Below, piece after piece: positions 9,776-51,449 of a DNA stretch of 64,000 nucleotides. The DNA is from an uncultured Kiritimatiellota bacterium (lineage in GTDB: Bacteria; Verrucomicrobiota; Kiritimatiellia; RFP12; DVOR01), in contig CALXSE010000011.1 of NCBI GenBank assembly GCA_944391085.1, forward strand, positions 4,012-68,011. The letters are read 5' to 3'. The notes under the pieces are model-generated. The model was not told the origin of the DNA. It searched no databases and worked only from the letters and a program-made list of their open reading frames with translations. Each line of letters starts with the position of its first letter. Positions within the stretch are counted from its first letter, which is position 1. The position numbers and the translations under genes are program-made.

Positions 9776-9804
9776 ATAATACCACCCCCCCCCCATTCGG
9801 TCAA
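9776..9804 (-). promoter_or_regulatory. sigma70-type promoter TTGACC-17nt-TATTAT (TG-extended) with a G10 homopolymer inside the spacer
   Basis: The minus strand reads TTGACCGAATGGGGGGGGGGTGGTATTAT. It lies 45-50 nt upstream of the mini PEP-CTERM CDS. Confidence 0.6.
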
Positions 9805-9914
9805 GTGCTTCTTCTCGCCCTGCCCTTTTTCCTGTCTTCGCCCCGGCAAAAGGCCGACGGGAAAGCGGCGCCCGCTTCCCAGATGCGCTCCCGTGGCGGG
9901 GGCCGTGCGGGGGG

Positions 9915-18876: not shown

Positions 18877-18888
18877 ATTATAGCAAAA
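18877..18888 (-). promoter_or_regulatory. extended -10 (TTTTGCTATAAT) upstream of the hypothetical CDS 18373..18858
   Basis: Perfect TATAAT. The T-run is shared with the csoR-family terminator. Confidence 0.55.
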
Positions 18889-26692: not shown

Positions 26693-27727
26693 TCAGGGAG
26701 CCGCGGGCGCGGGGTCGTCGGCGAAGAGGGTGGCGAGGTAGGCCTTGACGGCCTCGACGGCGGCCTTGGGCTTGCAGTGGAGGTCGCAGCCGGCGGCGCG
26801 GAGGTGGCCGCCGCCGCCGAAGTGCGCGGCGATGGTGGCGGCGTTGAAGGTGGCCGGCTCGTTGCGGGTGCGGACGCTGAGGCGGGTGACGCCGGGTTTA
26901 TCCTTGGTCTCGTAGAAGAAGAGGCAGACCTGGGCGGTGGGGATGGAGCGGGGGATGTCGATGGCGTCCTCGATCTCGCTCTTGGCGACGCCGGCGCGGC
27001 GGAAGTCCCTAGCGGTGAGGCAGATGAGGGCGACGCGCCCGCGGAACCAGGTGGCGAGGGAGTCGTAGGCCTTGCGCTTGAGCAGGACGGCGCCCTCGCT
27101 GGCGTACAGGAAGAGGCGGTCGTTGATGGCCGAGGAGTCGACCCCGAGGGCGAGCAGGTCGGCCGCGGCCCGGAGCGTGGAGGGGTGGGTGCAGGAATAG
27201 GCGAAGCGCCCCGTGTCGGTGACGAGGGCCACCCACAGGGCCTCGGCGGCGGGCAGGTCAAGCGCCCAGCCCTGGCGTTTGGCGAAGCGGTGGACGAGCT
27301 CGCCGGTGCTGCTGGCGTCCGGGACGACCCAGCGGGCGACGCCGTAGGGCTTGGAGGTGGCGTGGTGGTCGACGACGAGCGCGGGGAGCCTGGCGGCGGC
27401 GTCGCGCAGGGGGTCGGGCAGGCGCTCGGGCCCGCCGCAGTCGAGGATGAACACGCAGTCGTAGTCGCGCGCCTTGACGTTGGTGGGGGCGACGCAGGCG
27501 GCGTAGTCCAGCAGGAACCTAGGCGGCCCCATCCCGAGGGGCGAGAGGGCGACGGTGGGCTCCCAGCCGTTGGCCTTCAGGAGCCGGGCCATGGCCACGC
27601 ACGAGCCCACCGCGTCGCCGTCGGGGCGGACGTGCGCGGTGAGGAGGACGCGCCGGAAGCGGCGCAGGGCCTCCATGACGGCCTTGATGCTGCCCCGCTG
27701 ACGGTGCTTCGTGAGGTTGGGGGACAT
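26693..27727 (-). CDS. nrnA: DHH family phosphoesterase (NrnA-like oligoribonuclease/pAp phosphatase)
   Basis: Contains HVRPDGDAVGS and DHH (VVDHHAT). The DHHA1 block GGGGHLRAAG is also present. The ATG at 27727 overlaps the greA-like stop (TAATG). Confidence 0.8.
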   Translation of the reverse strand: MSPNLTKHRQRGSIKAVMEALRRFRRVLLTAHVRPDGDAVGSCVAMARLLKANGWEPTVALSPLGMGPPRFLLDYAACVAPTNVKARDYDCVFILDCGGPERLPDPLRDAAARLPALVVDHHATSKPYGVARWVVPDASSTGELVHRFAKRQGWALDLPAAEALWVALVTDTGRFAYSCTHPSTLRAAADLLALGVDSSAINDRLFLYASEGAVLLKRKAYDSLATWFRGRVALICLTARDFRRAGVAKSEIEDAIDIPRSIPTAQVCLFFYETKDKPGVTRLSVRTRNEPATFNAATIAAHFGGGGHLRAAGCDLHCKPKAAVEAVKAYLATLFADDPAPAAP

Positions 27728-29886
27728 TAAGCGTTGGGCTCGTACTGGGTGGGGATGGCCGCCAGCCACGCCTTGACGGCCTCGTCGAGCGGCTCGATGG
27801 CCACGAGGGTGGCCGGCTCGGCGCCGCGCTCGGCGGGGAGCTCCACCTTGGCGCCGGCCTGTTGCCCGAGGAGGGCGGCGGCCAGGCGGGAACGGCTGGA
27901 GATGATGTTGAGCGCCTCGTCGCGGTCAAGCTCGCCGAGGATGGTGTAGGTGGCGCGGCCCCGGGCCGTCTCGACGGTCACGCGGGTGCCGGGCTCGGCC
28001 GTCTCGCAGGAGACGCCGGCGAAGTCGGTGGCCTTGAGCAGCTTGAGGGTGCGGTCCATCTCGTCCTGGCGGCCGAGGAGGACGCGCTGGTGGTCCTTGG
28101 CGAACTGGTATTCCGCGTTCTCGCGCAGGTCGCCGTAGCTGCGGGCGGTGGCGATGTCCTTGGCGTTGGCGGGGATCTCGACGTTGGTGAGGTGGTCGTA
28201 GGCCAGGCGGTAGGCCGCGAGGGAACGCGCCGAGGTCAGGTGCGCGCGCTCCTGCGGCTGGCGCTCGGTGCGGCGCAGCTTGGCGAGCGTGGGGTCGAAG
28301 CGGGCCATGCGCACGAGCACGTTGCGCTTGCTGGCGGCGTCCCACTCGTTGGCCGTGGAGGCCTGGATGCGCTCGAAGACGACGCGGCGGTCGAAGTCCG
28401 AGAGTTCCTTGCAGACGCCCTCAAGCCACTTGGCGCTGTCGAAGAAGGCCTGGAGCGCGTTGCGCATCTTGAGGCTCTCGCCCGTGAGGCGCTGCTCGAC
28501 GATGTGGATGGCCTGCGTGATGAGCTCGTTGAGCGCGGGCGCGCCCCAGGCCTCGGCGTCGGTGCGGTTGCGCAGGGCCCAGACCACGAGGGTAGGCACG
28601 GGGCTGGCCTGGCGGGCCAGGAGCTTGCGCACCTCCGCGCCGGCCTCCTCGTCGCCGGCCAGCGCCCCGAGCGTCGCGCCCAGGGCGACGCTGTTGAGCT
28701 GCGGCAGATGTGCCAGGATCAGCGCCTTCTTCTCCGGCGCCACCGCGAGGATGAAGCGCACCGTGGCGGCCACGTCGCGGGCCGAGAGGCCCTTCATCGC
28801 GGCCAGGAAGTTATCCTGCTCGTCCTTCTCGGTCAGCGCCTCGGCCTGCCTGGCGCGCTCGGCGTCGGAGGAGAGGCCCAGGCGGGCCAGGAGCGCGGCC
28901 ACCTGCGCGTAACGCGGGTAGTCGGCGCGGTCGGCGCCCTTGAGGGCGAAGTTCAGGCGGTTGGCCACCGTGTCGCGGTAGCCGTCGGGCAGCTCGCCCT
29001 TCTTGTCGGCAAGCATCGCCAGGGTGCCGTCGTAGATCGCCTTGATGTCGCGCAGCTTGGCGAACTTCTTCAGCCAGGCGTCGCCGAAATCCTCCTCCGC
29101 CTCCAACAGGCGGATGGGCTCGGTCCGCTTGGCGGGGATCTCCACGGGGCGGGCCTTGTCGGCCTTCAGGCCCCGGCGCGCGGCGTCCCAGAACCCCTTC
29201 CACGCGTCCTGCGCCACCAGGCCGGCCGAGGCCAGGCGCTCCTGCAGGCGCTGGATCGTCAGCGGCCCGTAGCTCTCCAGGGCCAGGCGCACCAGCTCGG
29301 CCGGGCGCTTCTGCGCCATCTCCACGATTTCCTCGCGGTTCTTCAGCAGGCGCGTCATCAGGTGCGCGTCGTCGGCGATCTCCAGGTTCTGCCCCGCCAC
29401 CGCCAGGCTCATCGCGTGGCCCTTCTTCCCCTCAAAGTCGATGATCGCCTTCCCGTAAAAGGCGTCGATGCTCTGCACCTGCCCGAAGCCCCACGACTGG
29501 CTGCTCACGTACACCCCCGGCTTCAGCGCCAGCAGCACCGACAGCCGCCGCACGATCGCCGACGCCGTCGCCGAGGCCAACCCCACCGAGTCCACCATCA
29601 GCTTCTCGTCGGCCGTCGCCGCGCTCCGGCGCACCACCTCGCGCATCTGCGCCAGATCCACCCGCTTCAGCTCCGCCCCGCGCGCCGCGAAGAACGCCAT
29701 GCACGCCAGCGCCCCGCGCAGATCCTTGTGCTCCACGGCCTTCTCCGTGGCCGCCGCGAACGCCGTCGACGCGCCGGAGGCATCGTTCGCCAGCTGCTCC
29801 CCGATGGCCGCCAACGCCTCCTTGAAATCCGGCGTCTCCCCGTCCAGCGCGTTCTGGATACGCATGTTGAAAGCGCTCTTGTCCAT
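27727..29886 (-). CDS. greA: long-form GreA/GreB family transcript-cleavage factor (about 560-aa N-terminal extension)
   Basis: ATG at 29886 (MDKSAFNMRIQ). The C-terminal ~150 aa carry ARSYGDLRENAEYQFAKDHQ (the acidic tip) and the GreA C-terminal domain block PGTRVTVE...YTILG. Confidence 0.75.
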   Translation of the reverse strand: MDKSAFNMRIQNALDGETPDFKEALAAIGEQLANDASGASTAFAAATEKAVEHKDLRGALACMAFFAARGAELKRVDLAQMREVVRRSAATADEKLMVDSVGLASATASAIVRRLSVLLALKPGVYVSSQSWGFGQVQSIDAFYGKAIIDFEGKKGHAMSLAVAGQNLEIADDAHLMTRLLKNREEIVEMAQKRPAELVRLALESYGPLTIQRLQERLASAGLVAQDAWKGFWDAARRGLKADKARPVEIPAKRTEPIRLLEAEEDFGDAWLKKFAKLRDIKAIYDGTLAMLADKKGELPDGYRDTVANRLNFALKGADRADYPRYAQVAALLARLGLSSDAERARQAEALTEKDEQDNFLAAMKGLSARDVAATVRFILAVAPEKKALILAHLPQLNSVALGATLGALAGDEEAGAEVRKLLARQASPVPTLVVWALRNRTDAEAWGAPALNELITQAIHIVEQRLTGESLKMRNALQAFFDSAKWLEGVCKELSDFDRRVVFERIQASTANEWDAASKRNVLVRMARFDPTLAKLRRTERQPQERAHLTSARSLAAYRLAYDHLTNVEIPANAKDIATARSYGDLRENAEYQFAKDHQRVLLGRQDEMDRTLKLLKATDFAGVSCETAEPGTRVTVETARGRATYTILGELDRDEALNIISSRSRLAAALLGQQAGAKVELPAERGAEPATLVAIEPLDEAVKAWLAAIPTQYEPNA

Positions 29887-29971
29887 GTCTCCGAATCCTT
29901 TCCGATGAAAGCGACGCCCCCCCGCGCCGCGACGGCAGACCGCCGACGCGCCACCAAGGGCACTCCCATAC

Positions 29972-29983
29972 ACAATAGCAAAA
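29972..29983 (-). promoter_or_regulatory. extended -10 (TTTTGCTATTGT) upstream of the long greA
   Basis: Motif match about 85 nt upstream of the ATG at 29886. Confidence 0.45.
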
Positions 29984-30050
29984 TCCCCCCAAACGCCGCA
30001 ACCGCCCCACCCCGCGCCCGCCCGCCGCCCCTCCCCCGAGCGCCCTGCGG

Positions 30051-30061
30051 TTTGGTACAAT
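30051..30061 (+). promoter_or_regulatory. extended -10 (TTTGGTACAAT) 6 nt upstream of the trkA ATG
   Basis: Motif match. Implies a leaderless mRNA. Confidence 0.55.
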
Positions 30062-30067
30062 GGGCGC

Positions 30068-30736
30068 ATGAAACGCATCGGCATCATCGGCTCGGGCCGC
30101 TTCGGCGAGGCCCTCGTGCAGGCGCTCGCGGCCCAGGGCGCGGAGGTGCTCCTCATGGACACCGACCGCCGCAAAATCCAGGAGCTCTCCGAGTACGTCA
30201 CCAAGGCCATCGAGGGCGACGCCACGAACATCCACGCCCTCGAGGAGGCCGGCTTCGGCAGCTGCGACACAGTGGTGGTGGCCATCGGCGAGAACGTCGA
30301 GGGCTCCATCATGGCCACGGTGAACTGCAAGGACCTCGGCGTCCGCACCGTCGTCGCCAAGGCCTCCACCGACGTCCACGGCCGCGTCCTCCGCCGCGTC
30401 GGCGCCGACGTCGTCATCTTCCCCAACCGCGACCGCGCCCAGCGCCTCGCGCGGAGCCTCCTCACCGTCAGCCAGGTCGACCTCTTCGAGATCGCCGACG
30501 GCCTCTGCGCCGCCGAGATCCAGGCCCCCGACGCCGTCGCCGACAAGACCCTCGCCGAGGCCGACGTCCGCCGCGCCCACGGCATCACCGTCCTGGCCAT
30601 CCGCCGCCTCGACGACGCCGACCCCGCCGCGCCCCGCCGCCTCCTCATCCCCCAGGCCGACACCCCCATCCGCAGCGACGACCACCTCCTCGTCTGCGGC
30701 GCGTCCGACAAGATTGACGCCTTCGCCCAAGCCTAA
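30068..30736 (+). CDS. trkA: TrkA/KtrA-type potassium uptake regulatory protein (RCK N plus C)
   Basis: IGIIGSGRFGEAL is the Rossmann motif. An RCK_C domain follows. The ATG lies 6 nt after a TACAAT -10 box. Confidence 0.85.
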   Translation: MKRIGIIGSGRFGEALVQALAAQGAEVLLMDTDRRKIQELSEYVTKAIEGDATNIHALEEAGFGSCDTVVVAIGENVEGSIMATVNCKDLGVRTVVAKASTDVHGRVLRRVGADVVIFPNRDRAQRLARSLLTVSQVDLFEIADGLCAAEIQAPDAVADKTLAEADVRRAHGITVLAIRRLDDADPAAPRRLLIPQADTPIRSDDHLLVCGASDKIDAFAQA

Positions 30737-39473: not shown

Positions 39474-39502
39474 GTTGCCCGTCCTTTCTGAAAATCCCGC
39501 TC

Positions 39503-39514
39503 AGTATACCAAAA
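39503..39514 (-). promoter_or_regulatory. extended -10 (TTTTGGTATACT) upstream of the malic enzyme operon
   Basis: Motif match 29 nt upstream of the ATG, with an AAAGGA RBS in between. Confidence 0.55.
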
Positions 39515-39619
39515 TCCCACCCCCGCCACAGCCCCCGCCGCCGCGCCGGGAAGGCCGCGCCCCACCCTTCCCCGGCACCCAAGGCCCGCCCGAGGCCCGT
39601 ATCGCCGCGTCGCGGCGGC

Positions 39620-40050
39620 GTCCTGGCGGAGGCAGGGGCACTTCGTGCCGGCCGTTCCGCCACCTCGCCGCGGGTGCTCGCCCAGGCACGGGGCCGGGTA
39701 ACAGCCAACGCCCAGCCCGACGCGCCGGCCACGGGGGCCCGCCCGGGCGCAAGGACAGGCCGCCCTCCCCGCAACTTTGCACGGGTACGCATAGGTTCCG
39801 CCCAGGCACGGGGCCGGGGGCCCCTCCCGCAACGCGTGCGCGGGGCGCGTGGGTCTCGCCCCCAGCCCATCCGGAAACGCCTCCTTGGTCTTGCCCGCAA
39901 CGCTTGCACGGGGACGCGCGCAATCCCGTCCTGAGACGGGGCTGGGTTGTCTTGGCCGGCGCAAGGTCAAGCGTAAACGTGGGGAGCACCCGGGCGCGGG
40001 GGCGGGCCACCCGCACAAGTCTTGCACGGGGCGCATAAACCCCGCCTTGG
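39620..40050. repeat. degenerate ~58-68 bp tandem repeat field
   Basis: CCCGCAAC-n-TTGCACGGGG-like cores start at about 39767, 39825, 39893 and 40010, with a weak copy near 39958. GCCCAGGCACGGGGCCGGG occurs exactly twice, at 39680 and 39800. Confidence 0.5.
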
Positions 40051-40082
40051 GCGCGGGACGCGAAAAAAAGCAAAAAAGGGGA

Positions 40083-40110
40083 TTGACTGAGAGAAAATGT
40101 TTGATATAAT
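40083..40110 (+). promoter_or_regulatory. near-consensus sigma70 promoter TTGACT-16nt-TATAAT (TG-extended)
   Basis: TTGACT lies at 40083-88 and TGaTATAAT at 40102-10. Confidence 0.65.
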
Positions 40111-40116
40111 TTTAGG

Positions 40117-40175
40117 CGTTTTCTGAGATTCATTCTCAGATGCCGCCCACGGGCGGCGGGGCGATGCCCCTTTTG
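40117..40175 (+). ncRNA. three-hairpin RNA element, copy A (candidate sRNA or leader upstream of clpC)
   Basis: Begins with the 5' box TTAGGCGTTTTC. Hairpins lie at 40122-40140, 40142-40157 and 40158-40170, followed by TTTT. A paralogous copy on the minus strand at 50743..50808 shows compensatory stem changes. Confidence 0.5.
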
Positions 40176-40292
40176 CCGCCTTCGCGCGGCGTTCCCACGG
40201 GGGTGGGACAGTCTGCCTTAGCAACGTTTCCGAGCGTCGAAAGGCCCCGGCCTTTGCGCCGCCGCGGGCGCGTCCTGCGCGGGGGGGCGGAT

Positions 40293-40303
40293 TGTGGTAA
40301 AAT
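40293..40303 (+). promoter_or_regulatory. extended -10 (TGTGGTAAAAT), clpC-proximal promoter
   Basis: Motif match 33 nt upstream of the clpC ATG, with an AGTGAGG RBS. Confidence 0.5.
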
Positions 40304-40336: not shown

Positions 40337-42928
40337 ATGGAATTGCCGGATTTGAGTGGGTTCTCGCCGAACGCGCGGCGCGTGATGCGCCAGGCGCAGG
40401 TGGTGGCGCAGCGTCTGGGGCACGACCATGTGGGCTCGGAGCATCTGATCGTGGCGCTGGCGGAGGTGGAGTGCCGCGCGCAGGGGATCCTGCGCACGGC
40501 GTTCAGGACGTCGGCCGACGACCTGTGCGTCCGCGTGGAGGCGCAGGTCGCCTCGGGCGGGGTGCAGGAGGCGAACCCGGCGGGGTTGCCGTGGTCGCAG
40601 CGCGTGCGGAAGATCTGCGACGTGGCGCGCATGGTGGCCGAAACGCGCGGGCGCCAGGGGGTGGACACGACGACGCTGCTCTACGCCATCGTGGCGGAGG
40701 GGGGGCTGGGGGCGTTGGTGCTGCGCCAGCTGGGCGTGACGACCGAGGCCCTGGAGCGGTTCATGCCGCAGGTGGACGCGACGGAGCAGGAGTTCGAGGG
40801 CCCCGAGGCGATGAAGCCGGAGCAGGGCCAGGCGAAGCCCGAGGAGGGGAAGGAGCCGAAGAAGACGCCGGCGCTGGACACCTTCGGGCGGGATTTGACG
40901 GAGCTGGCCGCGCGCGGGAGGCTCGACCCGGTGATCGGGCGGGAGGCCGAGCTGCGCCGCCTGATCCAGATCCTGTGCCGCCGGAGCAAGAACAACGCCG
41001 TGCTCATCGGCGAGGCGGGCGTCGGCAAGACGGCGGTGGTGGAGGGGCTGGCCCAGGCCATCGCGGCCGGGGAGGTGCCCGAGGCGATGCTGGGCAAGCG
41101 GGTGGTGGCGCTGGACATGGCGCTGCTGGTGGCCGGGACGCAGTACCGCGGGCAGTTCGAGGAGCGCCTGAAGCGCGTCATCAACGAGGTGGCGCAGGGC
41201 GGGCGGATCATCCTGTTCCTGGACGAGCTGCACACCATCGTGGGGGCGGGCGGCTCCGAGGGCGCGATGGACGCGGCGAACATCATCAAGCCGGCCCTGG
41301 CGCGCGGGGAGTTCCAGTGCATCGGGGCGACGACGCTCAACGAGTACCGCAAGGGCATCGAGAAGGACGCGGCGCTGGAGCGGCGCTTCCAGACGGTGAT
41401 GGTGGAGGAGCCGACGGTGGCGCAGGCCATCGAGATCCTCCGCGGCCTGGCGCCGAAGTACGCCGAGCACCACGGCGTGCGGTATTCGCCCGCGGCGCTG
41501 GAGGCCGCGGTGCGCCTGACGGCGCGTTACCAGCCGGCGCGGCAGCTGCCTGACAAGGCCATCGACGCGATCGACGAGACGGGCTCGCGCCTGCGCCTGG
41601 CCGCCGCGATGCGCCCCGCGCACCTGCGGAAGCTGGAGCAGGAGCTGCGCGCCCTGACCAAGCAGAAGGACGTGGCGGTGGCGGCGGACAACTACGACGC
41701 CGCGGCCGTGCTGCGCGACCGCGAGACGGCCGCCGCCGAACGCTTCGAGGACGAGCTGCGCAAGTGGCAGGGCCGCCGCGGCGCCAAGCGCCTGGTCGTC
41801 TCCGCCGACGCGGTGGCGCAGACGGTGGCGACGATGACGGGCGTGCCCGTGAGCCAGATGACCGAGGGCGACCGCCGGCGGATGCTGGCCCTGGAGCAGG
41901 AGCTTGACGGGCGCGTCATCGGCCAGCACGACGCGGTCTCGGCCGTGGCGCGGGCGCTGCGGCGGGCGCGGGCGGGGATGAAGGACCCCTCGCGGCCGAT
42001 CGGGTCGTTCCTCTTCCTGGGGCCGAGCGGGGTCGGCAAGACGTTGCTGGCCAAGGAATTGGCCAGGGCGCTCTTCGGCGACGCGAAGGCGCTTGTGCAG
42101 CTGGACATGTCGGAGTACATGGAGAAGCACACCGTCAGCCGGCTGGTCGGCTCGCCGCCCGGTTACGTGGGGCACGAGGAGGGCGGGCAACTGACCGAGC
42201 GCGTCCGCCGCCGCCCCTATTGCGTGGTGCTCTTCGACGAGATCGAGAAGGCCCACCCGGACGTGGCGAACACGTTGCTGCAGATCCTGGAGGAGGGCTG
42301 CCTGACCGACGGGCTGGGGCGGCGCGTGGACTTCCGCAACACGGTGGTCATCCTGACCTCGAACCTCGGGTGCAACTTCGCCGGCGAGGCGCCGACGATG
42401 GGCTTCCTGCCCGGCGAGGCGGCCAAGGGCGTGCTGATGGCGCACGAGGCGCTGCGTACGAAGATCCTGGCCGAGGCGCGCAAGGCGCTCAAGCCCGAGC
42501 TGCTCAACCGGTTCGACGAGACCATCGTCTTCCGCGCGCTCGACCGCGAGGCGATGGCGAAGATCCTGGAGGTGGAGCTGGCGGCGGTGCGCAGGCGCCT
42601 GGCCGCGAACGGCATCCACTTTGAGCTCGACGCGGCCGCGGCCAAGCTGGTGCTCGACGAGGGCTTCAGGCCCGAGCAGGGCGCGCGCCCGCTCCGCCGC
42701 GCCATCGAGCGCCTGGTGGAGGACGCGCTGGCCGACGCCGTGCTGCGCGAGGGCCCCGGGAAGGCGCCCTACCTGCTCTCCCCCGGCGAGCCCGGGCCGG
42801 GCGGGGAGCGGCGCCTTGTGGCCACGCCGCGCCCGACGCCCGCCGCCGCGCCGCGCAAGGCCCCGCGCCAGCCGCCCTCGCGCCGCCGCGCCAAGCCCCC
42901 GCTCCCCGCGGCCTCGTCCACCCGCTGA
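40337..42928 (+). CDS. clpC: ATP-dependent Clp protease ATP-binding subunit ClpC
   Basis: Contains Clp_N repeats, two AAA+ modules ([15 protein letters not shown] and [17 protein letters not shown]) and a UVR-like linker. 863 aa. Confidence 0.9.
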
Positions 42929-48802: not shown

Positions 48803-50584
48803 TTAGTTGGCCTGGGCGGCGAGGGCCTCCGACTTTTCCTCGAGCGCCAGATACTGCTCGACGGCCGCGTCGAGCGCGGCCTGCACCTGGGCCAGCTCCG
48901 CCGAAAGCGCGGCGTAATCCGCGCCCGGCGCGGCGAGGGCGGCGTTGAGTTCGGCGACGCGCCCCTCCATCCCCTCGATTTCCCCCGGCAGGGTCTCCAA
49001 CAGCCGCCGCTCCTTGTAAGAGAGGCGCGTGGCGGCATTGTCGCGCCGGGGCGGCGCGGCCTTCCTCGGCTCCGCTTCGGCGGGCGCCGGGACGGGCGCG
49101 GGCTGACGGGCCAGGGCGGCCTGCCAATCGCTGTAGCCGCCGGGATAGGCGGCCACGCGCCCGTCCTCGACGACGAGCACGGAGGTGGCCACGTGGTCGA
49201 TGAAATCGCGGTCGTGCGACACCAGCAGGAGCGTGCCGGGATACGTCGCGAGCTGCTCCTCCAACAGTTCGAGCGTCTCCACGTCCAGGTCGTTGGTCGG
49301 CTCGTCCATCACCAGCAGGTTCCCGGGATTGAGGAAGAGCCGCGCCAACAGCAGGCGCGCGCGTTCGCCGCCGGAGAGGGCCTTGACGGGCGTGCGGGCG
49401 CGCTGCGGGGTGAACAGGAAATCGCCGAGATAGCCGTACAGATGCTTGCGGACGCCGCCGACGGTGACGAACTCCTTGCCTTCCGCGACGTTCTCCGCCA
49501 CGGTGGCCTCCGGGTCGAGCGCCGCGCGCAGCTGGTCGAAGAAGGCCGGCCTCACGTTCGTGCCGAGGCGCTGTTCCCCCGCCTGCGGCGTCAGCCGCCC
49601 GAGAATCAGGTTGAGCAGGGTGGACTTCCCCGCGCCGTTCCCGCCCAGGATGCCGATGCGCTCCCCGCGCAGGATGCGCAGCGACACGTCGCGCAGGACG
49701 GGCCGCGCGGGGTCATACCCAAAGGTGACGCCCTCGCAGCGGTAGACCAGGTCTCCGGCGCGCCCCTCGGCGCTGAGGGTGAGCGTGGCCTGGCCCGCCT
49801 GGGTGCGGCGCTCGGCGAACTCCCGGCGCAGCTTCATGAGCGCGGCCACGCGCCCCTCGTTGCGGCAGGTGCGGGCCTTGACGCCGCGGCGGAGCCACGC
49901 CTCCTCCTCGGTCAGCTTCTTGGCCTTGCGCTCCCAGTAGACGGCCTCGTCGGACAGCAGGTCGGCCTTGCGCCGCAAGAAGGTCTGATAATCGCAGTCC
50001 CAGCCCGAGAGGACGCCGCGGTCAAGGTCGAAGACGCTCTTGGCCACGGCCCGGAGGAAGGCGCGGTCGTGCGTGATGAACAGGCACGCGAAGGGCGCCG
50101 TGGACAGGAAGCGCTCCAGCCACTGGATGGAGGCGATGTCCAGATGGTTCGTCGGCTCGTCCAACAGCAGCAGCTGCGGCTCCCGCGCCAGGGCGCACCC
50201 CAGCAGCACGCGGCGGCGGAGCCCGCCCGAGAGCGCGTTGAACGCGGCCGCCGGCGGCAGGGAAAGGCGCGTGCAGAGCGCGTCGGCCACGTGGGCGCGC
50301 GCAGGGTCGTGCAGCTCCGCCAGCAAAATCTCGTGCACCGTGCCGGGGCGGTCGGCGGGAACGTCCTGCGGCAGGTAGGCCACGCGCGTGGCGGGCGCCT
50401 TGAGCACCTCGCCGGAATCGGGCTCGATGAGGCCGGCGATGACCTTGAGCAGGGTGGATTTGCCCTCGCCGTTGCGCCCCGTGACGCAGGCGCGCGCCCC
50501 GGGCTCGATCGAGAGCGTGATGTTCTCCAGGACGGGCGCGTTGCCGAACCCCACCGTCACGTCATGCAAAGTCACCAAAGCCAT
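48803..50584 (-). CDS. ABC-F family ATPase (Uup-like, C-terminal coiled coil)
   Basis: Internal ATG at 50584 (MALVTLHDVTVGF). Contains two NBDs (GRNGEGKST, GGNGAGKST; LSGGLRRR, LSGGERAR) and no TM domain. Confidence 0.85.
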   Translation of the reverse strand: MALVTLHDVTVGFGNAPVLENITLSIEPGARACVTGRNGEGKSTLLKVIAGLIEPDSGEVLKAPATRVAYLPQDVPADRPGTVHEILLAELHDPARAHVADALCTRLSLPPAAAFNALSGGLRRRVLLGCALAREPQLLLLDEPTNHLDIASIQWLERFLSTAPFACLFITHDRAFLRAVAKSVFDLDRGVLSGWDCDYQTFLRRKADLLSDEAVYWERKAKKLTEEEAWLRRGVKARTCRNEGRVAALMKLRREFAERRTQAGQATLTLSAEGRAGDLVYRCEGVTFGYDPARPVLRDVSLRILRGERIGILGGNGAGKSTLLNLILGRLTPQAGEQRLGTNVRPAFFDQLRAALDPEATVAENVAEGKEFVTVGGVRKHLYGYLGDFLFTPQRARTPVKALSGGERARLLLARLFLNPGNLLVMDEPTNDLDVETLELLEEQLATYPGTLLLVSHDRDFIDHVATSVLVVEDGRVAAYPGGYSDWQAALARQPAPVPAPAEAEPRKAAPPRRDNAATRLSYKERRLLETLPGEIEGMEGRVAELNAALAAPGADYAALSAELAQVQAALDAAVEQYLALEEKSEALAAQAN

Positions 50585-50593
50585 AGCGCGCGC

Positions 50594-50604
50594 ATTATAC
50601 CACA
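50594..50604 (-). promoter_or_regulatory. extended -10 (TGTGGTATAAT) 9 nt upstream of the ABC-F ATG
   Basis: Perfect TATAAT with TG. Implies a near-leaderless mRNA. Confidence 0.55.
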
Positions 50605-50742
50605 CCGCACGTGCCGGGAACCGCCGGCACCCATCGCACGGCTTGGGCGGGGGAGAACGGCCCGCGCCGGCCTTGCGGGCCTGCCACGGGACAACGCCCG
50701 CGGGGGCGGGCAGGGGGCCGCGGACGCGGCGCGCCGGGCGAA

Positions 50743-50808
50743 CCGGCAAGGGCCCAACGGGCCGCCGCTCAGGGCGGCAGAGGCTTCCGCCTCGTGAAAA
50801 CGCCTAAT
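50743..50808 (-). ncRNA. three-hairpin RNA element, copy B (upstream of the ABC-F gene)
   Basis: The minus strand reads ATTAGGCGTTTTC, then the three hairpins GAGGC-ggaa-GCCTC, GCCGC-cctga-GCGGC and GGCCC-gtt-GGGCC, then CTTGCCGG. Confidence 0.45.
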
Positions 50809-50817
50809 ATTATAGCA
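50809..50817 (-). promoter_or_regulatory. extended -10 (TGCTATAAT) driving RNA element copy B
   Basis: Perfect TATAAT with TG, immediately upstream of the conserved TTAGGCGTTTTC box. Confidence 0.55.
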
Positions 50818-50855
50818 TCCATTTCCAGGAATGCAACTCTTTTTTTTGGCGGGAT

Positions 50856-50912: not shown

Positions 50913-51449
50913 TCAGTAGGCGTTTTCGGGCTCAAGGGCGAAGTAGGCGCGGGGATGCTTGCAGACGGGGCACATCTCGGGGGCCTTGTCGCTGATGATG
51001 ACGGCGCCGCAGTTGAGGCACTCCCAGCGGCGCTTGCCGGTGCGGACGAAGACCTCGCCGGTCTCGACGTTCTTGGCAAGGGCGTTGTAGCGGGCCTCGT
51101 GGCGGGCCTCGACCTCGGCGACGCCGCGCATCTGGCGGGCGATGTCGTGGAAGCCCTCGGCGTCGGCCTCGTCGGCCATGCGCTTGTACATGTCGGTCCA
51201 CTCGTAGTTCTCCCCGGCGGCGGCGGCCTTGAGGTTCTCGAGGGTGTTGCCGATGCCCTGGAGGTGCTTGAACCAGAGCTTGGCATGCTCCTTTTCGTTG
51301 TTGGCGGTCTCCTCGAAGATCCTGGCGATCTGGACGTAGCCCTCCTTCTTGGCGACGGAGGCGAAGTAGGTGTACTTGTTGCGGGCCTGGGATTCGCCGG
51401 CGAAGGCTTCCATCAGGTTCTTTTCGGTTTTGCTGCCTTTGAGTTCCAT
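50913..51449 (-). CDS. rbr: rubrerythrin
   Basis: Internal ATG at 51449. The ferritin-like [13 protein letters not shown]...EEKEHA region is followed by the C-terminal rubredoxin block CLNCG...CPVC. Confidence 0.9.

Follow-up and report, generated by a model that had tools for sequence, protein, structure and literature searches.

Within a 64,000-nucleotide (nt) stretch of DNA from an uncultured Kiritimatiellota bacterium (the window), a module consisting of a promoter-like site and a series of hairpins is present twice, in convergent copies that lie 10.7 kb apart. Copy A is on the plus strand (40105-40175), 5′ of a ClpC/ClpB-type gene (40337-42928), and copy B is on the minus strand (50817-50743), 5′ of a gene for an ABC-F/Uup-type ATPase (48803-50584; Pfam ABC_tran twice plus ABC_tran_CTD). 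The module is predicted to specify a selected, structured RNA of about 76-80 nt. The reading that we tentatively prefer, and that we place just short of an even chance, is that copies A and B are paralogous copies of a young, lineage-restricted small-RNA (sRNA) gene. As judged from sequence, the feature is real and under selection, narrow in its distribution and of a familiar kind, that is, a candidate for a small RNA or a promoter-leader module to which no relatives are known. The closest proteins to the ABC-F and ClpC proteins of the window are found in metagenome-assembled genomes (MAGs) labelled Kiritimatiellia or Candidatus Spyradenecus, of the Planctomycetes-Verrucomicrobia-Chlamydiae (PVC) group.

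The two copies are related by duplication. Read on the minus strand, positions 50817-50743 are TGCTATAAT-ATTAGGCGTTTTC-ac-GAGGCggaaGCCTC-t-GCCGCcctgaGCGGC-GGCCCgttGGGCC-CTTGCCGG, which agrees letter for letter with the preliminary description of copy B. Local alignment of the two loci returns one significant block of ~120 nt (40071-40191 versus 50848-50732; 67% identity, E 2e-9), in which an A-tract, a -35 hexamer (TTGACT or TTGCAT), a 16-nt spacer with TG, TATAAT, the identical 12-mer TTAGGCGTTTTC, and four hairpins follow one another in that order. An exact 19-base match between the copies, TATAATNTTAGGCGTTTTC, occurs twice in the window, with 0.00 occurrences expected from shuffled sequence. 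The homology stops after hairpin 4, and the GC-rich spacers beyond it are not alignable. The likeness between the copies that had been noticed earlier therefore stands as far as the shared architecture is concerned, as the 19-base match and the ~120-nt block attest, but copy A is on the plus strand and the hairpins number four. The three hairpins of the preliminary description overlooked a conserved fourth, since CTTGCCGG is a linker together with the 5′ arm of hairpin 4 (50747-50743, paired with 50737-50733). The module is an AT-rich island within a genome whose GC content, taken over the window, is 70.7%. The features of the two loci are given here in window coordinates; the sister species and the strains named in them are introduced below.

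50840..50847, minus strand: A-tract of copy B (8 A), placed like an UP element immediately 5′ of the -35; the sister species shares the first bases of this tract, and the remainder lies in the A/B homologous block.
50809..50836, minus strand: distal promoter of copy B, with TTGCAT at 50836-50831, a 16-nt spacer with TG at 50817-50816, and TATAAT at 50814-50809.
50796..50807, minus strand: 12-mer TTAGGCGTTTTC of copy B, the same in copy A and invariant across strains; predicted single-stranded RNA 5′ end and putative seed.
50780..50793, minus strand: hairpin 1 of copy B, GAGGC-GGAA-GCCTC, with a GNRA loop that reads GGAA in some strains and GAAA in others.
50764..50778, minus strand: hairpin 2 of copy B, GCCGC-CCTGA-GCGGC; the stem is the same as in copy A and the loop varies among strains.
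50751..50763, minus strand: hairpin 3 of copy B, GGCCC-GTT-GGGCC, with two pairs flipped relative to copy A (GGGGC-GAT-GCCCC); CTT follows, with no U-run.
50733..50747, minus strand: hairpin 4 of copy B, GCCGG-TTCGC-CCGGC, with one pair flipped relative to copy A (GCCGC-CTTCGC-GCGGC).
50608..50731, minus strand: GC-rich spacer of copy B, 124 nt, with 16/124 positions variable in 9 strains; not alignable with the spacer of copy A.
50594..50604, minus strand: proximal ABC-F promoter TGTGGTATAAT, leaderless, 9 nt 5′ of the ATG at 50584; kept in the sister species and, in kind, in 4/5 more distant ABC-F loci.
50917..50927, minus strand: GAAAACGCCTA, the last codons of rubrerythrin just before the TGA; perfect 11-nt complement, 110 nt upstream, of the module 5′ sequence TAGGCGTTTTC.
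40063..40190, plus strand: copy A as a whole, with A-tracts at 40063-40077, TTGACT at 40083-40088, TGATATAAT at 40102-40110, and TTAGGCGTTTTC at 40112-40123.
Plus strand: hairpins of copy A, namely hairpin 1 at 40122-40140, hairpin 2 at 40142-40157, hairpin 3 at 40158-40170, and hairpin 4 at 40175-40190.
40171-40174, plus strand: TTTT linker of copy A, which is TTGT in 4 other strains.
40293..40303, plus strand: proximal promoter of ClpC, TGTGGTAAAAT, separated from the ATG at 40337 by a leader of 33 nt that includes GAAAGTGAGG; kept in the sister species, which lacks copy A.

Comparison of the two copies and of strains of the species indicates that the hairpins are maintained as RNA structure. 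The four-hairpin fold is the minimum free energy (MFE) structure of copy B and lies within 0.7 kcal/mol of the MFE for copy A. MAFFT alignments misplaced hairpins 1 and 4, and base pairs were therefore counted on a hand alignment evaluated in Python. Of 20 comparable base pairs, 13 are identical between the copies, 7 have changed on both sides, and none is broken. Four of the seven double changes fall in hairpin 1, the position of which is taken in copy A by an unrelated 7-bp hairpin and where the alignment is structure-guided; the other three belong to hairpins 3 and 4, which BLAST aligns without reference to structure. Strain data, comprising 9 copies of locus B and 5 of locus A, show no variation at the stems and the 12-mer (0/108 positions) as against 19/210 positions in the downstream spacer (pooled Fisher p = 0.0006, which is indicative only because the strains are closely related). 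Stems taken alone are likewise invariant (0/86), whereas loops and linkers vary at 5/48 positions. The promoter hexamers, the 12-mer and the stems are all under constraint, which ends at hairpin 4; beyond it, the 124-nt spacer of copy B varies among strains as fast as the hairpin loops. Compensatory change together with stronger conservation of stems than of loops is the pattern expected of a structured RNA, here in a comparison of two paralogues. In the spacer of copy A, a GCGCC-GAAA-GGCGC hairpin with a GNRA loop (40233-40246 in window coordinates) is present in strains L027-L030 and has been destroyed in the window strain by a T for C and a 2-nt deletion, which is consistent with an unconstrained spacer.

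Both copies carry a site of the sigma-70 type, as recognized by consensus match only (hexamers at 16-18 nt, with optional TG and A-tract). That of copy A, TTGACT-16-TATAAT with TG, has 11/12 consensus matches. In copy B (TTGCAT-16-TGcTATAAT) the extended -10 is perfect and the -35 matches at only 3/6 positions, which is under the scan cut-off; the hexamers and the TG of this promoter are unchanged in the 9 strains, all 3 variable sites lying inside its spacer. Transcription of copy B would start at about 50805-50802. There are 14 TGnTAnnnT sites in the window, and those of copies A and B are the only ones with both a -35 and an upstream A-tract, most being of the TTTTGGTAnAnT type without a -35. 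This combination of a T-tract and an extended -10, with no recognizable -35, is the common promoter-like signal window-wide (for example at 18885, 25618, 39511, 54119, 55696 and 63970).

The module is absent from relatives in which the neighboring genes are well conserved. In the sister species (L024 and L025), ClpC is 94% identical and the order ClpC-ParE-antiporter-M3 peptidase-YgjP-ABC-F-rubrerythrin-permeases is the same as in the window; both modules are missing from the syntenic loci, whereas both proximal promoters and the rubrerythrin terminator are kept. At the sister locus B, the leaderless arrangement TGTGGTATAAT-N9-ATG is retained and 58 unrelated nt stand in place of the 235 nt that make up module and spacer in the window (50843-50609). 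At the sister locus A, homology begins only at the proximal promoter, at 40277. The module is also absent from the more distant ABC-F loci L001, L003, L004, L005 and L007 (75-87% identity) and from the ClpC locus L026 (85%). A cis-acting leader conserved with its gene is thus not what is found, either at ABC-F (L001, L003, L004, L005, L007, L024) or at ClpC (L024, L025, L026). Because it is absent from the syntenic sister and from the distant relatives, which keep the proximal promoters, the module is a lineage-specific addition and not an ancestral expression signal of ABC-F or ClpC.

No convincing relative of the module, beyond the two copies themselves, emerged from the collections scanned. 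Rfam 15 gave no matches over the whole window at the gathering threshold, and permissive E-value scans of both loci and of L020 returned nothing relevant; the matches at locus B are located in the terminator of rubrerythrin, have E >= 0.58 and score far under gathering. The 19-base match TATAATNTTAGGCGTTTTC has 11 matches in 185,579 species genomes, which are scattered over taxa and about as many as expected by chance, in a representative-genome collection that seems not to include the window species. The sole PVC match among them, in the Verrucomicrobiota MAG L020, lacks a proper -35 and hairpins and is doubtful. The sole match to TGNTATAATNTTAGGCGTTTTC in Joint Genome Institute (JGI) metagenomes, L021, is on a 45% GC contig in which the only notable open reading frame (ORF) resembles, by eye, a eukaryotic THAP zinc finger, and was treated as chance. 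Two low-GC viral matches in IMG/VR are terminator palindromes, and searches of phages and plasmids by blastn gave only 25-30-nt GC-rich chance matches. A profile of copies A and B run with nhmmer over all fetched loci and ~5 kb past the window end found no third copy, so that the count is two in ~69 kb of the window species and none in ~38 kb of the sister species. A literature search for small RNAs in Kiritimatiellia found nothing relevant.

In the sRNA reading, each copy would have its own sigma-70-type promoter (A-tract, -35 and extended -10) driving an RNA of about 76-80 nt. At the start of this RNA would be a single-stranded tail of 10-14 nt that includes the invariant GGCGUUUUC, and four GC-rich hairpins in a row would come next. 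The tail could act in trans as a seed for base pairing, with the hairpin block serving as a stabilizing or protein-binding scaffold, and the position 5′ of ABC-F and ClpC may simply be where the gene arose or landed. The reading is preferred because the 5′ end and the stems are fixed while hairpin 1 has been replaced and loops and spacer are free to vary, because the module is independent of the neighboring genes, and because there is a tRNA precedent for its position.

That precedent is found in L007, where a tRNA-Leu(TAG) gene (2897-2978) occupies the same slot in the same orientation as the leaderless ABC-F gene. It has a promoter of its own (TGCTATACT), and the promoter of ABC-F follows without an intervening terminator; a small stable-RNA gene at this position would therefore be normal for the clade. 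Unlike the gene in L007, the element of the window is not a tRNA. ARAGORN finds no tRNA or tmRNA genes in the window (the same tool finds tRNAs in L001, L007 and L024), and the loops of the element, at 3-5 nt, are smaller than a cloverleaf requires. A cloverleaf or tRNA-like closure of a 5′ AGGCG with a downstream CGCC(U) was considered and rejected, as it involves 4-5 bp at different positions in copies A and B and a motif that is common at 70% GC. In L001, the corresponding intergenic region has a tRNA-Leu and a tRNA-Gly gene on the opposite strand.

The best-conserved part between the paralogues is the single-stranded 5′ end, and this is also the most conserved part of 5′-seed sRNA paralogues such as OmrA/OmrB of Enterobacteria. 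The module resembles OmrA/OmrB, and also RybB-type sRNAs, in that these are short RNAs with their own promoter, neighboring paralogues, a conserved single-stranded 5′ end, an internal segment that diverges (here hairpin 1), and hairpins after the seed. It differs from OmrA/OmrB in having no sequence or Rfam relationship to them, no conserved Rho-independent terminator with U-tail, a body of four GC-rich hairpins, and a host from a different phylum, within the PVC group. Moreover, copies A and B are 10.7 kb apart and convergent rather than adjacent, and a role as sRNA is here a prediction.

Several observations weigh against an sRNA gene. Both copies point into the downstream gene, and the module is known so far as two copies in one species. 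Folding of copy B is no better than that of shuffled sequences (z = -0.76 and -0.94; the corresponding score for copy A is -3.99), and the intergenic DNA of the clade is rich in GC hairpins; the call of a structured RNA is accordingly based on the A/B comparison and strain polymorphism, not on folding energy. The strain sequences that reveal the constraint are closely related and not independent samples. A conserved intrinsic terminator, in the form of a GC hairpin with a U-run, is found after the hairpins of neither copy. The host does use canonical terminators, for example after rubrerythrin, and this rubrerythrin terminator is the only one returned by a terminator scan near both loci. Finally, the best candidate target of the 5′ tail, GAAAACGCCTA in the rubrerythrin gene, is plain coding sequence and occurs in the sister species too, where the module is lacking, and its complementarity may be a coincidence.

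The lack of a conserved terminator bears directly on the most substantial alternative, which is the model of the preliminary description and which we consider possible but somewhat unlikely. In this model the module is a distal, co-regulated promoter with a structured 5′ leader, from which transcripts pass the hairpins and the spacer and continue into ClpC and ABC-F. The segment from the -10 to +12, which is the same in both copies, would be an operator for a repressor, or a discriminator or initial-transcribed signal, and the hairpins would act in cis through pausing, stability or attenuation. The two promoters in tandem that had been described at both loci are indeed present as sequence signals, with a distal site, a structured segment, a GC-rich spacer and a proximal TGTGGTA(T/A)AAT, and the ABC-F gene has its own box, TGTGGTATAAT, 9 nt before the ATG as had been reported. 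Both copies are co-oriented with the next gene with no conserved terminator between, the distance from the distal -10 to the start codon is similar (227 nt in A and 225 nt in B), and both downstream genes are related to stress or proteostasis. Conservation extends over the promoter and into the start of the transcribed region, the usual location of an operator, and a weak dyad, GAAAAYG-N17-CGTTTTC, can be read around the -10 of copy A.

With no conserved terminator after the hairpins, transcripts from the distal promoter may read through into the downstream genes. Hairpin 3 of copy B does lack a U-run, as had been pointed out (CTT follows it); it is succeeded by CTTGCC, and hairpin 4 by GCGCC. 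The contrast formerly drawn between a copy A that terminates and a copy B that reads through does not extend beyond a single strain, since the TTTT after hairpin 3 of copy A is a feature of the window strain and reads TTGT in 4/5 strains. With regard to Rho utilization, the spacer of copy B is mildly C-rich (C 0.44, G 0.38), and that of copy A is not.

Against such a leader, the sister species and the other relatives have the same genes with the proximal promoters alone, and the spacer between module and gene shows no constraint. The ABC-F gene has no Shine-Dalgarno sequence and its leaderless promoter is conserved, being found with a TGnTAnAnT sequence 7-9 nt 5′ of the ATG, and no Shine-Dalgarno sequence, at the four closest of the more distant ABC-F loci as well. 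For this reason a distal transcript, in which the start codon would lie 220 nt from the 5′ end, would be ill suited to translation of ABC-F, and such a long transcript would probably interfere with the proximal promoter rather than add translatable mRNA. The orientation of copy A is uninformative because it lies in a divergent intergenic region, and that of copy B had a 50% chance of pointing towards the gene. Compensatory changes in the stems indicate RNA structure and not a DNA operator alone. Given the absence of the module from the sister and other relatives, the unconstrained spacer and the leaderless ABC-F gene, the claim that the module is a dedicated, conserved 5′ part of the ABC-F (or ClpC) unit is not supported. 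Tandem distal and proximal promoters with long structured leaders on stress genes are similar in having two sites in series, with 190-215 nt of structured GC-rich RNA, 5′ of ClpC and ABC-F. They differ in that here the distal part is absent at the orthologous loci of the nearest relatives, the spacer is unconstrained, and one of the two genes is leaderless.

The leaderless ABC-F/Uup promoter (TGnTAnAnT, 7-9 nt, ATG) is itself shared by the window (50582-50604), the sister species (L024, 20220-20242) and four relatives (L001, 2983-3005; L003, 2983-3005; L005, 2984-3005; L007, 2993-3013), where the designation as leaderless follows from the spacing. The module also bears some resemblance to the lambda nut boxA-boxB and HK022 put sites, promoter-proximal antitermination RNAs with a conserved single-stranded box followed by small hairpins near a promoter and before a terminator-free region, the loop of hairpin 1 in copy B being of the GNRA type. 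The match to boxA is weak (5/8 by eye), the loop of hairpin 1 in copy A is different, and no phage context was seen.

An improbable explanation is that the module is a promoter-carrying repeat of the Correia/NEMIS type, spread by insertion or ectopic conversion, with hairpins that serve the element or are by-products and with incidental effects on neighboring genes. The same 120-nt module was gained at two loci that are empty in the sister species, in each case 100-130 nt 5′ of an ancestral promoter, and forms an AT-rich island in GC-rich DNA. The intergenic regions of the clade are full of lineage-specific hairpin and oligonucleotide repeats, and two assemblies break ~130 nt 5′ of copy A. However, no terminal inverted repeats or target duplications were recognized at either copy when boundaries were set by comparison with the sister species, and no transposase or recombinase is found among the ~29 window proteins scanned against Pfam. 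Only the two copies are present in the ~69 kb of the species, pattern scans of genomes and JGI metagenomes are at chance level, and a host function is suggested by the purifying selection that acts, within the species, on stems and 12-mer. Repeats resembling miniature inverted-repeat transposable elements, such as the Correia/NEMIS elements of Neisseria, likewise measure ~100-150 nt and lie 5′ of unrelated genes, with promoter hexamers and hairpins in the transcript; the module differs from Correia/NEMIS in lacking terminal inverted repeats and target-site duplications, in having two known copies, and in showing selection that suggests host function.

Repeats of other kinds surround these loci. 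A 600-nt non-coding stretch 5′ of copy A (window 39500-40050) contains GC-rich repeats with a period of ~120 nt, namely CGCCCAGGCACGGGGCCGGG at 39679 and 39799, TTGCACGGGnACGC at 39777 and 39904, and CCCGCAACGCnTGCnCGGGG at 39826 and 39894. The contigs of L029 and L030 both stop inside it at ~39977, and in L027 and L028 the gene caller places across it an ORF of 234 amino acids (aa) with no Pfam matches. Synteny with the sister species breaks at copy A (window 39474-40100 versus L024 6597-10000), where the genes before ClpC in the sister are Gly_transporter(-), L31, RF-1 and one with a TerB/DnaJ domain. The window species has malic enzyme before ClpC, and its Gly_transporter gene is found ~17 kb rightward of copy B. 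The L031 (14438-15269) and L032 assemblies stop just past the Gly_transporter gene, and the end of L031 runs into an AT-rich stretch. In L026, four tandem palindromes, (G/A)ACCCTAAGGGGT(C/T), lie ~21-22 nt apart 5′ of the 85% identical ClpC (9780-9870); they are unrelated in sequence to the module and look like a repeated dimer-binding site or a hairpin array. Short runs of oligonucleotide repeats (CTCCAAAC / CTTCCAAAC; CCGTTCTCCGTTCT; GGAAAGGGAAAGG) are found 5′ of ABC-F and ClpC in relatives (L003, 2860-2925; L005, 2740-2800 and 2930-2965; L001, 2950-2975; L024, 9575-9650 and 9880-9935). In L024, the purine-rich and pyrimidine-rich runs form long imperfect inverted arms that face each other around the region upstream of ClpC.

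The complementarity between the module and the rubrerythrin gene admits a more specific, and rather doubtful, version of events, in which a recent, duplicating cassette of promoter and regulatory RNA has its 5′ end fixed by pairing with the region of the rubrerythrin stop codon. The sequence GAAAACGCCTA (50927-50917) pairs with the RNA 5′ end at 11/11 positions, with -17.4 kcal/mol, and no other non-self site in the window does better. A perfect 11-nt match at a distance of no more than 110 nt would occur by chance with a probability of roughly 1e-4, although it was found post hoc. Strain L039 has a C-to-T change in the site that would keep a G.U pair in RNA. We regard the complement as a possible target of the RNA and do not count it as evidence. 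Were the cassette version true, a young sRNA acting on the 3′ end of an oxidative-stress mRNA would already have been copied to a second locus, and the birth and spread of an sRNA would have been caught in an uncultured gut bacterium of the PVC group. In a variant of this version, the 11-bp repeat would be a trace of the way in which the cassette was generated or targeted to its site.

It is very improbable that the same repeat (50927-50917 / 50806-50796) belongs to an invertible promoter, in which a recombinase would flip a 110-bp segment with the rubrerythrin terminator and the distal promoter on or off towards ABC-F. The 11/11 inverted repeat has 110 nt between its arms, the promoter abuts the right arm as promoters abut a repeat arm in known invertons, and copy A has a weaker 11/13 partner 231 nt upstream. 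Yet this partner (39870-39882) is not significant, 9/11 matches occurring 14 times in the window; the left arm is coding sequence that is present in the sister species without the module and that carries the C-to-T change in one strain; all 9/9 aligned strain assemblies are in one orientation; every member of the rubrerythrin cluster ends ...PENAY; no recombinase is found among the ~29 window proteins scanned; and the A/B homology runs far past the repeat into the hairpins.

Elsewhere in the window, a 994-aa ORF on the minus strand (27727-30711) shows GreA/GreB N- and C-terminal domains that are confined to the final ~170 residues, the ~800 residues before them being without Pfam matches; its counterpart in L026 has 719 aa and is annotated as HTH_GRAD plus GreA_GreB.

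On present evidence, the module does not reveal a new regulatory principle for ABC-F or Clp genes. Its interest as a candidate source of a small RNA lies in the organism, since almost nothing is known about the regulatory RNAs of Kiritimatiellia and other gut bacteria of the PVC group, which are known mostly from metagenomes. In these groups it provides a cleanly delimited candidate, with a promoter-like site, an invariant 5′ tail, four hairpins with compensatory change, and purifying selection within the species. The 3′ end of the rubrerythrin mRNA offers a concrete hypothesis for a target. The youth of the module, which a sister species with the same gene order lacks, would make it a convenient case in which to follow the origin and duplication of an sRNA gene.

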